A DNA stretch of 64,000 nt from the NCBI GenBank assembly GCA_045545475.1, contig JAZQAZ010000010.1, positions 1 through 64,000 of the forward strand, given 5' to 3'. Made by a program: the position numbers and the translations under genes. Positions 46,753-64,000 of this stretch are shown here, in pieces (within the stretch, counting starts at the first letter, position 1; the number at the start of each line of letters is the position of its first letter). This stretch comes from Clostridia bacterium. GTDB lineage: Bacteria; Bacillota; Clostridia; CAKSNL01; HGM11501. Under the pieces are notes generated by a model. That model saw nothing but the letters and a program-made list of their open reading frames with translations. It was not told the origin of the DNA and ran no database searches.

Positions 46753-46781
46753 TTGACAATGAATATGGGGTATGATATAAT
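46753..46781 (+). promoter_or_regulatory. Consensus sigmaA promoter of the kinase-vWA-PP2C locus
   Basis: TTGACA (46753-58), 17-bp spacer, TGnTATAAT (46773-81). Confidence 0.8.
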
Positions 46782-46917
46782 TTTACAAAATGTGTCATCG
46801 TATGAAATGTTAGGACATTATTTTAACTTTTAATGCTTCATGACAGTTGAATGAAGGCGATGCCGGCATAAAAACTGTTGTTTGGCGGAAAATGAAAACT
46901 TGAAAGGATGTGATTGT

Positions 46918-48225
46918 ATGGGTAAATTTGTTGCCGGAGATAAGCTCGTTTCAAAAAGCGGGGTAAATATCACGGTAAAGAAGTTCATTGGAGAAGGTGG
47001 ACAAGGTGCGGTTTATCTGGTTGATTACGGCGGAACGGAAAAGGCCCTTAAGTATTATCATAAAAGTTATATGAAAAGACTGGATACTGAAAGCTTTTAC
47101 AAAAATCTAAATCAAAACATTGCAAACGGTGCACCGGCAAAGTCATTCCTTTGGCCACAGGACCTTACAAAGTGGAGTGGGAAGGCAGATGAGCAATATG
47201 GATACATAATGGATGTTCGCCCGCCGGAATATAATGAATTGACTGATTTTTATCTGCTGAATGTAAAATTCAAATCGGACTTTGAGTTGTTGACCGCATG
47301 CATAAATATTGTCCAAGCATTCAGAGCTTTACATAACAACGGATGCAGCTATCAGGACCTTAATAACGGTAATTTCTTTATTAATAAAGATACGGGTGAT
47401 GTGCTAATTTGCGATAATGACAATGTGTCCGTTAACGAGGAAAATTTCGGCATAAAGGGTAAGCAGCGATATATGGCTCCGGAGGTGGTATTGGGCGGAA
47501 CGCCTAATAAGTATTCTGACCGTTTTTCTCTGGCTGTTATATTGTTCAGAATGATTTTCGGAGGGCAGCATCCTTTTGAGGGTAAATATTCAACACCTCC
47601 GTGTATGACTTTTGAATACGAAAGGCTGTATTACGGTGAAGATCCTGTGTTCCTTTTTGATCCTGTTGATAAAAGAAACGCTCCCGTTTCTTATTTACAC
47701 TCAGGAGCTATGATGCTTTGGCCGTTATACCCTGAATATTTACGTAATTTGTTCATTGAAACGTTTAATAAAAATGGAATCAAAAACCCCGAAAAAAGAC
47801 CTATAGAAGCTACGTGGCTTGAAACCTTAGTAAAGCTCAGAGGTGAATGGGTAAAATGTCCGAAGTGCGGAAGAGAAGGGTATCTTAATGCTCATGAAGC
47901 TGTACCCTGCTCCAAATGCGGAATAAGTTTGAGAGCACCGTATAACTTCGTTGGAGATTCGATGGAGATTCCTGTTGTGCCGGGAACGTATATATGCAAA
48001 TTTCAAATTGATAACACAAGCAATGAGTTTAACAACTTCATAGGACAAGTGCTGAAGCATGAAGTTACGAAGGAAGTTGGGTTATTCAATACTTCCAAAG
48101 AACCGTGGACAGCAATCCACGCTAATGGGAAAACTGAGGTTGTGAATCGAGGCGAAGTTGTCGTTATCGAACCTGACTTGATAGTGATGATCAGTAATAA
48201 AAAATACACATTTAAAAAAGTATGA
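46918..48225 (+). CDS. YegI-like Ser/Thr kinase with zinc ribbon (TerY-P triad kinase)
   Basis: IGEGGQGAVY, ALK, YQDLNNGN, ICDNDN, YMAPE; CPKC...CSKC; beta-rich tail. Confidence 0.85.
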   Translation: MGKFVAGDKLVSKSGVNITVKKFIGEGGQGAVYLVDYGGTEKALKYYHKSYMKRLDTESFYKNLNQNIANGAPAKSFLWPQDLTKWSGKADEQYGYIMDVRPPEYNELTDFYLLNVKFKSDFELLTACINIVQAFRALHNNGCSYQDLNNGNFFINKDTGDVLICDNDNVSVNEENFGIKGKQRYMAPEVVLGGTPNKYSDRFSLAVILFRMIFGGQHPFEGKYSTPPCMTFEYERLYYGEDPVFLFDPVDKRNAPVSYLHSGAMMLWPLYPEYLRNLFIETFNKNGIKNPEKRPIEATWLETLVKLRGEWVKCPKCGREGYLNAHEAVPCSKCGISLRAPYNFVGDSMEIPVVPGTYICKFQIDNTSNEFNNFIGQVLKHEVTKEVGLFNTSKEPWTAIHANGKTEVVNRGEVVVIEPDLIVMISNKKYTFKKV

Positions 48226-48243
48226 ATTTAGGAGGAAAAAAAC

Positions 48244-49020
48244 ATGCAGGATATTGAAATAACCGCCCCAATCAGAAAAGTGATGACTTTATTTTTATTG
48301 GTTGACACATCAGGAAGTATGATAGGAGATAAAATACAAGCCGTAAAGTCAGCTATCGAAGAAGTGAAGGTACAGTTGGCTGACTTATCAAAGAAAAATG
48401 ACGATGCGGAAATCAGATTTGCTGTAATGTCATTTGGTAAGGAGGTTAACTGGTTAACACCGAAGCCTGCTGCCCCCGAAAGTATTGACGTTAGCGGTAT
48501 TATCGCAGTTGAAAAGGCTCTTACACCCATGGGTGCAGCATGTGCAGAGCTTGAAAGTAAACTGTCGAGAAGTGAATTTCTTGAAGATGTTGGAAACTAT
48601 CCGCCTGTCACCATTTTGTTGAGTGACGGTTTTCCGACGGATAATTTTACCAGCGGATTAAATACGCTTAAGCAGAATAACTGGTTTAAGCGTGCCATCA
48701 AAGTTGCTTTTGCAATAGGAGCAGAGGCTGACAGGGATATACTGACACAGTTTACCGGAAGCAGCGAAACAGTAATAGGTGTAAACGATGCGGCTACACT
48801 TAAGGCATTGCTCGAAAAGGTTTCTGTTATTACTTCAGATTTCCAGAGTAAGCCTAAAGAAACAAAAGATGCCAAAGATGCCAAAGATGCCGAAGATCCT
48901 ACAGCAGATGCTGAAAAATTAGTTCAACAGGCGATTGAAAACGTTGACGTTGATACTGAAAAAATTGCCGTCGGAGATAATCCTGTAAAAATGCCTGAAG
49001 GTTGGGGTATATGGAAATAA
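48244..49020 (+). CDS. TerY/YegL-like vWA domain protein
   Basis: LVDTSGSM MIDAS motif, TPMGAA, ILLSDGFPTD, LKQNNWFK. Confidence 0.88.
   Translation: MQDIEITAPIRKVMTLFLLVDTSGSMIGDKIQAVKSAIEEVKVQLADLSKKNDDAEIRFAVMSFGKEVNWLTPKPAAPESIDVSGIIAVEKALTPMGAACAELESKLSRSEFLEDVGNYPPVTILLSDGFPTDNFTSGLNTLKQNNWFKRAIKVAFAIGAEADRDILTQFTGSSETVIGVNDAATLKALLEKVSVITSDFQSKPKETKDAKDAKDAEDPTADAEKLVQQAIENVDVDTEKIAVGDNPVKMPEGWGIWK
48865..48891 (+). repeat. 9-bp tandem repeat x3 (KDA) in the vWA tail
   Basis: aaagatgcc x3. Confidence 0.8.
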
Positions 49021-62665: not shown

Positions 62666-62686
62666 TTTTTTACATAGGGGGAAAAT

Positions 62687-63889
62687 ATGCGAAACGAAGT
62701 ATTAAATATATTTAGGAAAATGTATTTAGACAATGGTGCGGATTTGTTTTTAAATAACAGTAAGCTAGTATCATACTTAAAAGATATGCTTGTTGAATTT
62801 CCAAAAGAAAGAGCTCGTTTATGCTTTGTAGCCAGAGAAAATATTGTATCGAAAATCTATAGAGAAGTATCATCTGAAGACTTATCTAGATGCGGGATAA
62901 TGATTAGCCTTTTGGTGGATACATATTCCATGTCGGATATTATTGCGACAGATATTGTAAATGCAATTTGCTATGCTTTGTTCGGTCGCAATTATTCTGG
63001 CGATAAGCATGAAAACAAAACTGTTACATGCGAAGCCGGAACAGACTTTCTGTTGCAAACAAAATTAATTAAATATACCGGAGCAGATGTTGAAGAAATA
63101 ATAGTTCCTGATGGGGTTGAGGTTATAGGCCAGGATGCATTTTTGGCTATAGAAAATGTAAAGAGAATAGTCCTGCCTAATACAGTTAAAGTAATAGAAG
63201 CAAATGCATTTTATTGGCTTATGAATCTTGAGGAAATTAACTTGCCAGATTCTGTTATAAGTATCGGAGCATGGGCATTTTGCGGTTGCGAATCGCTTAA
63301 GGAACTTACTTTGCCTGATAAAATTGAAACCATTGAGGAATTTGCATTTAGCAGAAGCGGAATCGAAAGGATTGAATTGCCGAAAGGTCTGAAAAAGATT
63401 AAGCACGGCTCTTTTATGAACTGTAAAAGGCTAAAGGAAATCTATATTCCGGAAAAAGTGGAATTGATAGAAGATATGGTATTTACTGCATCTGGAATAG
63501 AAAAGTTCGACATTTCTCCTGATAATCCGAAATTTGAGTTTTGGAATAATGGTGGTATTCTGGTGGAAAACATGGGTGTTAAAGAGAAAATGACATATGG
63601 AATCGATGACCGTATAATAAAGACAAAAGTGATTGAACGAAAATTAATCTGGTTTAGAGATGCTTTTTTATATAATAATATTACAGTTCCTTCGGAAATC
63701 GCTGTTATAGCAAATAGAGCTTTTCCGCATAGTGCCAAAGGAAAGCGTATAATTATTCCTAATTCGGTTACAAAAATTGAAGATGAGGCGTTGCCGCCTC
63801 ATAGTATACTGATATGTGAGCGAGGATCGGCCGCTGAAGGGTATGCGATAAAGAATAACCTGAAATATATATATCGTAACAACATATAA
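62687..63889 (+). CDS. Shared N-terminal domain + BspA-type leucine-rich repeats
   Basis: Repeated LP..V..I...AF..C..L..I.LP units; ends GSAAEGYA. Confidence 0.85.
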   Translation: MRNEVLNIFRKMYLDNGADLFLNNSKLVSYLKDMLVEFPKERARLCFVARENIVSKIYREVSSEDLSRCGIMISLLVDTYSMSDIIATDIVNAICYALFGRNYSGDKHENKTVTCEAGTDFLLQTKLIKYTGADVEEIIVPDGVEVIGQDAFLAIENVKRIVLPNTVKVIEANAFYWLMNLEEINLPDSVISIGAWAFCGCESLKELTLPDKIETIEEFAFSRSGIERIELPKGLKKIKHGSFMNCKRLKEIYIPEKVELIEDMVFTASGIEKFDISPDNPKFEFWNNGGILVENMGVKEKMTYGIDDRIIKTKVIERKLIWFRDAFLYNNITVPSEIAVIANRAFPHSAKGKRIIIPNSVTKIEDEALPPHSILICERGSAAEGYAIKNNLKYIYRNNI

Positions 63890-63944
63890 TGAGCAATAAT
63901 ATTTAGTGCAGAAGGAGATTTGCAATTCCAAAAGGAGAATTATA

Positions 63945-64000
63945 ATGCCATCGATTAAAGAATATATCAGAAGGGAAAGAGAAGAAACAAAAATATTGCT
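63945..64000 (+). CDS. Start of the next ORF, truncated by the window edge
   Basis: RBS aaaggag then ATG: MPSIKEYIRREREETKIL... Confidence 0.5.
   Translation, partial: MPSIKEYIRREREETKIL

Follow-up and report, generated by a model that had tools for sequence, protein, structure and literature searches.

The window analysed here comprises the first 64,000 nucleotides of a 171.6-kb contig (JAZQAZ010000010.1) of the Clostridia bacterium assembly GCA_045545475.1, a genome of 2.74 Mb in 50 contigs. Between positions 46,594 and 63,931, it carries a strain-specific island of 17 open reading frames (ORFs), whose leading part, module A (46.9-58.2 kb), encodes a kinase-vWA-PP2C triad, an EccC/EssC-like ATPase, small helical-hairpin proteins, a membrane protein and a papain-like cysteine peptidase. 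Based on protein folds, conserved catalytic residues, conserved gene neighbourhoods and toxin domains that replace each other in one position, we propose that module A is probably a minimal type-VII-like delivery device, which would be gated by the triad and would carry an effector of the polymorphic-toxin type. The island as a whole consists, very likely, of three separable modules, module A being followed by module B (58.35-60.5 kb), with a radical SAM enzyme and its candidate substrates, and by module C (60.5-63.9 kb), with an array of paralogues. A previous sequence-only reading of this DNA had linked the triad to the ATPase and hairpin genes on the basis of co-location; the link is real and goes beyond co-location, but it has already been published (PMC11090510, PMC4978471).

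Triad, ATPase and toxin slot of module A

The ATPase (51,535-54,897; this and all other island features lie on the + strand) is a protein of 1120 residues, with a coiled-coil hairpin at its N-terminus and three tandem P-loop domains. Its AlphaFold2 (AF2) model, based on a 22-sequence alignment and with a mean pLDDT score of 81.7, begins with a long coiled coil, in which helices 3-68 and 104-164 run antiparallel, and continues with three alpha/beta domains. Foldseek aligned the protein with the cytoplasmic three-ATPase part of EccC (4nh0; E 1.3e-22 over 1029 columns) and also with domains D2-D3 of EssC. The Walker A signature GK[ST] was kept in 22 of 22 sequences at residue 520, in the middle domain only. 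No hydrophobic or transmembrane (TM) segment was found in any of the five family ATPases checked, the window ATPase among them, and Pfam gave no FHA-domain match in the latter. As judged from the structural model, the protein is a soluble EccC-like triple ATPase with one predicted active P-loop domain. It scored 56 bits against the EssC model TIGR03928, for which the cut-off is 778, and a profile self-comparison of its three ATPase parts was not significant. The nearest relatives were 43% identical, about 50 protein clusters covered the full length of the protein, and a comparison with plasmid and phage records returned no match at E <= 1e-20.

The triad lies upstream of the ATPase. A Ser/Thr kinase of the TerY-P type is encoded at 46,918-48,225 (Pkinase, E 9.7e-15), with its start at the ATG at 46,918; the listed ORF begins with a TTG at 46,882. 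Behind the kinase domain, the protein has a C-terminal CxxC...CxxC zinc ribbon, which reads CPKCG...CSKCG, and a beta-rich tail. The kinase gene is followed by a gene for a stand-alone, TerY-like vWA protein at 48,244-49,020 (VWA, E 3.9e-9), whose DxSxS motif is DTSGS, and by a gene for a PP2C phosphatase with a charged coiled-coil tail at 49,039-50,436 (PP2C_2, E 7e-32). TerY-P triads are described in PMC11090510 as adjacent genes for a stand-alone MIDAS vWA protein, a PP2C phosphatase and a Ser/Thr kinase fused at its C-terminus to a zinc ribbon, and PMC7159879 sketches them likewise; the vWA, PP2C and kinase genes of the window have precisely this composition. PADLOC returned generic matches only, namely to the kinase (PD-T4-6, mad6), the P-loop protein (mad8, SspH) and the radical SAM enzyme (pVip). 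None of its models matched the vWA protein, the PP2C phosphatase, the hairpins or the effector, and the component set of a known anti-phage system was not recovered with them.

The ATPase is rare in the genomes sampled. Within the organism's own family, this genome was the only one of 14 in which it was found; the class sample had it in 2 of 399 scored genomes, this genome included, and the sample from the Coprococcus catus family (Lachnospiraceae) in 6 of 401, with three full-length relatives. A vWA gene and a kinase gene stood beside the ATPase gene in four of the six ATPase-family loci inspected, those of this genome, of genomes G518 and G090 and, partially, of G439, and they did so in three gene orders. 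The G518 locus (L024) reads LGT, a TM protein (TM-291), ATPase, two hairpins, a 234-residue WHH/colicin-DNase protein, a hairpin, kinase, vWA, PP2C and a second kinase-like gene; its kinase and that of the window are 40% identical. The order in G090 is vWA, PP2C, kinase, ATPase, two hairpins, a 322-residue protein with a papain-fold Gln deamidase domain and an 83-residue ORF, and that in G439 is a kinase-like gene, vWA, a multi-TM protein (TM-293), ATPase and a 229-residue LHH nuclease protein. The two remaining loci have the ATPase module without the triad: G556 has the ATPase, a 363-residue protein, three hairpins, a membrane protein and a leucine-rich repeat (LRR) protein, and C. catus (L004) has a serine recombinase, a hairpin, the ATPase, two hairpins, a membrane protein and a transglutaminase-like protein, with no triad within 10 kb of the ATPase module.

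The C. catus module rides an integrative mobile element. It is immediately preceded by a gene for a large, DUF4368-containing serine recombinase, and there is a relaxase gene in the vicinity (L004:7890-9593, 2118-3464).

At four ATPase loci, four different toxin domains occupy one slot: a C39-like peptidase, a WHH/colicin DNase, an LHH nuclease and a Gln deamidase. The N-terminal parts of these four effectors align poorly. In the window, the slot holds a 345-residue protein (55,184-56,221) whose N-terminus is a hairpin of family 2 (LGVY; see below) and whose C-terminal domain is a papain-like (C39-like) Cys peptidase, the two being joined by a disordered linker. Residues Q169, C180, H285 and D308 were invariant among 41 sequences, and the AF2 model, which contains the N-terminal helices and the papain domain, reached pLDDT values above 90 in the C-terminal domain. 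Foldseek matches of this domain included a CdiA-CT toxin and a papain-like toxin/immunity entry as well as C39-like, staphopain and PCAT peptidases, with a probability of 1.00 for the C39-like entry 3erv, staphopain and the PCAT peptidases. The protein therefore combines the Gln-Cys-His-Asp/Asn set and the papain fold by which papain-like peptidases are recognised, and its Pfam Peptidase_C39_2 score of 20.6 bits lies below the cut-off of 24. Pfam gave no LXG match in this protein, its N-terminus being a hairpin of about 100 residues with an L-G-V-Y turn. The effector domain had 699 relatives at E <= 0.001. Among the 150 relatives listed, the domain was mostly C-terminal in proteins of 83-2178 residues; 42 relatives were scanned with Pfam, of which 12 had RTX repeats, seven reached Peptidase_C39_2 and one also had a WHH nuclease domain. 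Because the Q-C-H-D set is intact, the predicted fold is that of papain and the slot is the one that elsewhere holds WHH, LHH and Gln-deamidase toxins, we consider the 345-residue protein a credible effector. A 157-residue ORF (56,235-56,708), which begins 13 nt past the toxin gene and belongs to no family in Pfam, NCBIfam or PADLOC, is by its position alone a putative immunity protein.

Two hairpin families, with proteins of 85-122 residues, are conserved beside the ATPase. Family 1, with a DNMGxD turn, is represented in the window by an 85-residue protein (54,923-55,180), whose homologues adjoin the ATPase at loci L004, L023 (two copies), L024 and L014. Family 2, with the turn consensus D-x-L-G-[VI]-Y, includes a 122-residue protein (56,713-57,081), assigned from the family alignments, and a 92-residue protein (57,110-57,388), which is 35-37% identical to the L004 and L023 hairpins; both have the LGVY turn. 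The two families resembled each other weakly, with E 8e-4 in a single comparison. The last gene of module A (57,398-58,207) encodes a 269-residue membrane protein, in which residues 55-80 form a hydrophobic segment and which is 39% and 35% identical to the L004 and L023 proteins, respectively. A TM-hairpin protein of this kind, of 269-293 residues, was present in five of the six ATPase-family loci scanned, and we regard the window protein as a candidate membrane partner of the ATPase.

Between the triad and the ATPase, a protein with a transglutaminase-like Cys peptidase fold is encoded at 50,504-51,511 (Transglut_core, E 1.9e-6; PDB 9crn, E 4.8e-10). No TM segment was found in it, and it appears to be cytoplasmic. 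It is 27% identical over 293 residues to an orthologue in C. catus, with which it shares the Cys, His and Asp motifs, and it accompanies the ATPase in two of the six loci. It had been considered as a variable effector, a possibility that was dropped in view of the C. catus orthologue; because of this orthology, the protein is more likely an accessory part of module A. The earlier proposal that both papain-fold enzymes of the island are effectors is thus credible for the 345-residue protein, with its intact Q-C-H-D set, papain fold and place in the toxin slot, and is not supported for the transglutaminase-like protein, which recurs in two of the six loci.

At L027 (G437:C58:9,000-28,900), a 1497-residue EssC-like ATPase gene is preceded by genes for a weak WXG100 match, a zinc-ribbon protein, JAB and ThiF (a ubiquitin-like system), and downstream of it are a 318-residue homologue of the window papain-like toxin domain and an M48 peptidase.

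The island and its modules B and C

The stretch from 46,594 to 63,931 is a single strain-specific insertion. In the closest relative, G001, whose DapB is 96% identical to the window DapB at the amino acid level, nucleotide homology ends at 46,593 and restarts at 63,932, and no island genes were found at either G001 flank, which argues for one insertion event. The sequence-only reading had described packed, co-oriented genes that start at a consensus promoter behind the dapB terminator and run off the window. The packing was confirmed: the 17 ORFs, all on the + strand, fill the region from 46,882/46,918 to 63,889 with spacings of 3-67 nt, apart from a gap of 143 nt before the radical SAM gene and one of 117 nt (61,565-61,681). 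The block does not, however, leave the window, since the homology to G001 restarts inside it and ordinary genes (Vut_1, SDR, M20 and PGA_cap) follow from 63,906 on. The gene and domain list of that reading agreed with our Pfam and NCBIfam searches, which identified Pkinase, VWA, PP2C_2, Transglut_core, FtsK_SpoIIIE, a weak Peptidase_C39_2, Radical_SAM with SPASM, Sel1 and BspA-LRR domains.

The intrinsic terminator of dapB (46,586-46,620), a 16-bp hairpin with an A-tract as well as a U-tract, is located at the left edge of the strain-specific block. Its fold has -22.3 kcal/mol with a z of -7.5, and none of 200 shuffled sequences folded equally well; a consensus terminator scan of the window did not list it. 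The sigma-70-type consensus promoter at 46,753-46,781 (TTGACA-17-TATAAT with the TG of an extended -10 element) was the sole 12/12 match among 77 promoter-like sites, a total that is close to the shuffle expectation of 65.6 +/- 9.6. With regard to base composition, the region had been said to look more AT-rich than the housekeeping genes. Measured per gene, this applies to 50.5-63.9 kb only, where all genes between the transglutaminase-like and the LRR gene, these two included, have a guanine-cytosine (GC) content of 0.28-0.37, the toxin gene (0.413) excepted. The triad genes, with 0.395-0.412, are not AT-rich in a genome with a GC content of 0.408, and the genes downstream of the island have 0.39-0.42.

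Some further observations concern the island borders. A perfect 16-bp direct repeat, AAACAAAAATATTGCT, occurs at 46,705 and 63,985, within a weak similarity of about 75 nt between the left edge of the island (46,652-46,730) and the 5' end of the Vut_1 gene (63,944-64,010); it may have been left behind by the insertion. On the same contig, 4 kb downstream of the island, a gene with a GC content of 0.345 (C10:67,932-70,745) encodes a 937-residue protein with TIR, Sel1 and TPR (tetratricopeptide repeat) regions, which may be a separate accessory gene of the defence type. A PGA_cap (CapA-like) gene occurs soon after the ATPase module both in C. catus (L004:16806-17975), two genes past the transglutaminase-like gene, and in this contig (L003:4488-5777), four genes past the island, maybe by coincidence.

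The boundary between modules A and B falls in the 143-nt gap, where a promoter-like site at 58,219-58,246 is followed by a hairpin of 14 bp with perfect pairing (58,250-58,287; -17.1 kcal/mol, z -5.6). Module B begins with a gene for a radical SAM/SPASM maturase at 58,351-59,349 (Radical_SAM and SPASM in Pfam), whose start is probably the ATG at 58,351, because homologues span just 91% of the longer ORF from 58,267. Its best NCBIfam matches were TIGR04103, which we take to be the PlpX family, with 209.5 bits (cut-off 725), and TIGR03913, with 187.5 bits (cut-off 591.75); the next family scored 134 bits. Three relatives of the enzyme tested against NCBIfam gave the same pattern, below the cut-offs. 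At E <= 1e-40, relatives of the enzyme number at least 1318 and are spread over very diverse organisms.

Two candidate substrates are encoded behind the enzyme. The first, of 197 residues (59,372-59,965), has a motif-free N-terminal part of about 140 residues, a YPENY motif and two exact [LI]YGPPDFDDDF repeats, with LYG twice; the second, of 164 residues (59,987-60,481), has a YPENF motif and a C-terminal IYGTAL. They are weakly similar to each other around YPEN only. The 197-residue protein had no homologue among 5.8 billion clusters, no usable Atlas match and no similarity to the hairpin families, and the long N-terminal parts of both proteins had no detectable relatives. At 12 of the 14 other radical SAM loci (4/4 in the class sample, 5/7 short loci in the Lachnospiraceae sample and 3/3 metagenome loci), a Y-[AG]-G-[PR] protein adjoins the radical SAM gene. 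These partner proteins have 89-300 residues, repeated [VLI]-Y-[AG]-G-P sites, often a zinc ribbon, and a (K/R)YP motif, with YP-x-N-[YFH] in six of them. The residue after the Tyr is mostly Ala, giving a V-Y-A-G-P consensus, with Gly in some copies only. Since they carry YPENY or YPENF, the duplicated LYGPPDFDDDF and the terminal IYGTAL, the window substrates are probably divergent members of this class, from which they differ in their long motif-free N-terminal parts as against mostly zinc-ribbon proteins of 89-300 residues.

Pairs of a radical SAM/SPASM gene and a [VLI]-Y-[AG]-G-P gene were seen at L012, L013, L015, L016, L028-L034 and L039-L041, apparently as an uncurated, widespread two-gene family. 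NCBIfam had no family for the ten Y-[AG]-G-P proteins tested, and neither VYAGP nor YAGPE occurred in the open-access papers listed for the motif; Scott et al. 2022 (Chem), who reportedly classify the types of splicease, may already cover the clade.

Known spliceases act at XYG (PMC11414181, PMC11626197), and ketoamide spliceotides inhibit Ser and Cys proteases (PMC11626197). Because the family motif here is V-Y-A-G-P and XYG is not conserved, tyramine splicing is not established and the earlier assignment of ketoamides to the window proteins is unsafe; the chemistry of module B probably has some kinship with tyramine splicing, and the chances that its enzyme performs tyramine excision are roughly even.

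Modules A and B occur independently of each other in the other genomes. In the class sample, the radical SAM enzyme was present in 5 of 399 genomes (E <= 1e-60) and the ATPase in 2, and both together in this genome only. In the Lachnospiraceae sample, with 7 (again at E <= 1e-60) and 6 of 401 genomes, respectively, the sole shared genome was G439, where the two genes lie on contigs C20 and C6. The C. catus genome had no radical SAM match at E <= 1e-20. None of the 14 other radical SAM loci was linked to the ATPase, and none of the five other ATPase loci contained the radical SAM gene. In a 20-kb metagenome locus with a radical SAM enzyme 54% identical to that of the window, the neighbours were housekeeping genes only. 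The censuses are small, because the search of genome contigs for related loci confirmed 1 stretch among at least 602 matching and the metagenome scan with the radical SAM alignment confirmed 3 of 412. On this sequence evidence, modules A and B adjoin through island assembly and not through a conserved partnership. The sequence-only reading had tied the radical SAM enzyme and its XYG-containing proteins to the FtsK/peptidase module, with these proteins as matured inhibitors or co-exported weapons; the neighbourhood survey speaks against this, as the radical SAM gene occurs without the ATPase in 14 of 14 other loci, and such independent occurrence is what that reading had itself named as a refutation.

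Module C is an array of paralogues that share an N-terminal domain of about 105 residues (N-domain) and have variable binding domains. The first paralogue (60,542-61,564; hidden Markov model (HMM) and BLAST) has charged 14-residue repeats and a TM segment, the second (61,682-62,665; HMM, BLAST and Pfam) Sel1 repeats, and the third (62,687-63,889; HMM, BLAST and Pfam) a BspA-type LRR region. In the first, the ATEERQKATEERRK repeats are encoded by a 42-nt tandem repeat (61,002-61,149) of 3.4 copies with 92% matches. The N-domain has six copies in this genome and none in 13 relatives, so that 1 genome among the 14 from the organism's family has it, and its comparison with the Atlas gave unnamed clusters only. 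Contig C8 carries a second Sel1/LRR pair with the N-domain; about 1 kb upstream of this pair lies the gene of a vWA paralogue with 34% identity to the window vWA protein, and a third N-domain site has no vWA gene nearby. Because the second pair lies by a vWA paralogue, there are hints, on the thin evidence of two of three sites in one genome, that the array belongs with the vWA protein rather than with the radical SAM enzyme. The gene order at the C8 site (C8:92,000-108,000, L035) is radical SAM with HhH, DUF4130, the vWA paralogue, a 147-residue radical-SAM-like protein, a 90-residue ORF, N-domain-Sel1, N-domain-LRR and a DUF4130-like gene.

Export or intracellular defence

In the proposed working of module A, the ATPase, acting as a hexamer, would recognise dimers of the two hairpin families as well as the hairpin-tagged effector, and would hand the hairpins and the peptidase to or through the membrane together with the 269-residue membrane protein. 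The cargo would be an active papain-type Cys peptidase, as its residues and model predict, with the putative immunity gene behind it. The kinase, the PP2C phosphatase and the vWA protein would switch the export machine on and off by phosphorylation. In this scheme, we infer export, the immunity role of the 157-residue ORF and the target of the kinase.

Several points weigh against this explanation, delivery and the separate standing of module B included. The ATPase lacks a membrane anchor and no signal peptides were evident; neither hairpin family matched Pfam WXG100, and profile searches of the PDB with both families returned generic helical bundles only and no Esx chain. The immunity role of the 157-residue ORF is putative, by position only. 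Six ATPase-family loci were inspected, out of about 50 known protein clusters, and the genome samples are a small part of their taxa. Module B may have been captured functionally in this genome, as all genes arrived in one block, and the genes on either side of it might belong to the neighbouring modules, namely the membrane protein gene on the upstream side and the N-domain array on the downstream side. Moreover, TerY-P triads are otherwise tied to intracellular anti-phage or DNA-processing systems (PMC11090510), and it is this association that favours an intracellular reading.

According to such a reading, the main rival, which we hold to be possible though unlikely, module A is an anti-phage system of the abortive-infection type: the triad senses infection, the ATPase and hairpins release or activate the effector inside the producer, and the small ORF restrains it. 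The absence of a TM segment from the ATPase in five of five loci would fit this, as would the nuclease effectors (WHH, LHH) of sister loci, which are common in defence systems, the AT-rich and strain-specific character of the island, and the TIR-domain gene 4 kb downstream. An ATPase/WXG100 pair of the same kind has also been described inside McrBC-type restriction operons, where a mechanism other than classical secretion was held likely (PMC11090510). On the other side, a membrane protein stands beside the ATPase in five of the six family loci scanned, relatives of the effector domain are C-terminal in long proteins, as is the case in exported toxins, with RTX repeats in 12 of the 42 scanned, and the effector shares its hairpin with the small proteins, a trait of secretion substrates. 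In addition, the PADLOC models match none of the vWA protein, the PP2C phosphatase, the hairpins and the effector.

Two explanations concern the block as a whole. One, the integrated model of the sequence-only reading, holds that the radical SAM enzyme makes alpha-ketoamide xYG proteins that inhibit, or travel with, the two papain-fold enzymes in one phosphorylation-gated system. Every gene does lie in one co-oriented, strain-specific block, the window substrates do have LYG (twice) and IYG, the nearest curated families of the enzyme are TIGR04103 and TIGR03913, and the catalytic residues are kept in both peptidase-fold proteins; the two substrates are orphans with unusually long motif-free N-terminal parts, and ketoamide spliceotides are reported to act on Ser and Cys proteases (PMC11626197). 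Nevertheless, we consider this model very improbable: every other genome examined shows the modules to be independent, the family site is V-Y-A-G-P with most copies lacking YG, the enzyme scores 209.5 bits against a cut-off of 725, the modules are set apart by a hairpin and a promoter-like site, and the substrates are dissimilar to the hairpin families. A variant, in which module B was captured as a cassette and the window substrates are whole proteins modified by the radical SAM enzyme, possibly with ketoamide warheads at LYG and IYG, in the service of the toxin module, seems very unlikely, and the same low expectation attaches to the substrates serving there as covalent inhibitors or immunity factors for the papain- or transglutaminase-like Cys enzymes, or as extra cargo. 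A built-in ketoamide inhibitor of the island peptidases is too improbable to be carried forward without biochemical support. The other explanation regards the whole block as a mosaic of accessory cassettes that came together by chance at a hot spot of insertion, with the triad and the ATPase module as unrelated neighbours too. The genome-like GC content of the triad (0.395-0.412) next to an AT-rich remainder, and the ATPase modules without a triad in C. catus and G556, agree with it; vWA and kinase genes, however, adjoin ATPases just 24-25% identical to that of the window in three further loci with differing gene orders, and the association has been published for Proteobacteria (PMC11090510 and PMC4978471). 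We give the mosaic hardly any credence.

The triad-gated delivery device remains the reading we prefer for module A. The cassette of triad, EssC-like ATPase and hairpins is a published system of predicted function, and gut-type Firmicutes load it with swappable toxins (a peptidase, two nucleases and a deamidase) and a membrane partner. Toxin polymorphism in Firmicutes, the conserved membrane partner, the recurrent transglutaminase-like protein and the large radical SAM/[VLI]-Y-[AG]-G-P family go beyond the cited papers. The small size of the operon makes export and intracellular defence directly testable against each other, and the radical SAM family may reveal a relaxed splice site or a different tyrosine chemistry.

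Comparison with known systems

Module B resembles spliceotide pathways of the PlpX/RhaX type in its radical SAM/SPASM enzyme, with TIGR04103 and TIGR03913 as top curated matches, in its binary composition of enzyme and precursor without a separate Y protein, and in the Tyr followed by a small residue at repeated sites, the window copies being LYG and IYG. Unlike in these pathways, the enzyme scores far under the family cut-offs, the family consensus is V-Y-A-G-P, and the substrates are proteins of 89-300 residues, in which a zinc ribbon and a (K/R)YP..N motif are frequent.

The type VIIb systems of Firmicutes consist of EssC, with FHA domains and two TM helices, EssA, EssB, EsaA, the YukD-like EsaB, WXG100/EsxA proteins, and LXG toxins with small helical partners. 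Module A shares with them an ATPase of the EccC/EssC fold, small helical hairpins, and variable C-terminal toxin domains followed by a small gene, and the N-terminus of its toxin is, as in LXG proteins, a helical targeting domain with an L-x-G turn. Unlike EssC, the window ATPase has no FHA/TM part and has a Walker A motif in one domain only. Pfam and NCBIfam matched EssA, EssB, EsaA or a YukD-like protein in none of the 17 ORFs, which sets module A apart from canonical type VIIb loci.

Polymorphic toxins, a concept said to go back to Zhang et al. 2012, reportedly combine a conserved trafficking N-terminus, a swappable C-terminal toxin domain and an adjacent immunity gene. Module A agrees with this scheme in that different toxins occupy one slot and that relatives of the window toxin domain are C-terminal in many unrelated long proteins; it departs from it in the N-terminal parts of its effectors, which align poorly, and its immunity gene is putative only.

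The nearest known system is the TerY-P/EssC/WXG100 cassette, as outlined by Bell et al. 2024 (eLife; PMC11090510). There, an EssC homologue beside TerY-P triads has three ATPase domains, of which D2 alone is active, and a coiled coil in place of the FHA and TM regions; it is accompanied by two WXG100 proteins, one of them without WxG, by a coiled-coil nuclease fusion and then by a small protein. The same paper relates that Anantharaman et al. 2012, to whom PMC4978471 likewise attributes the cassette, saw the WXG100/FtsK operon as a mobile stand-alone secretion system, and the same set with an LHH nuclease is noted for Helicobacter in PMC4978471. Unlike that cassette, module A is found without McrBC/CoCoNuT genes, in a low-GC host of the Firmicute type; its effector is a papain-like Cys peptidase where the cassette has a restriction-endonuclease-like nuclease, its hairpins have LGVY and DNMG turns and no Pfam WXG100 match, and it adds a conserved membrane protein and, in two of six loci, a transglutaminase-like protein. 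Like the cassette, it combines a vWA protein, a PP2C phosphatase and a zinc-ribbon kinase with a soluble ATPase of three FtsK-type domains, which has an N-terminal coiled coil and Walker motifs in the central, predicted active domain. Two small helical-hairpin proteins, an effector fusion with a helical N-terminus followed by a small ORF, and a stand-alone, mobile occurrence are likewise common to both.

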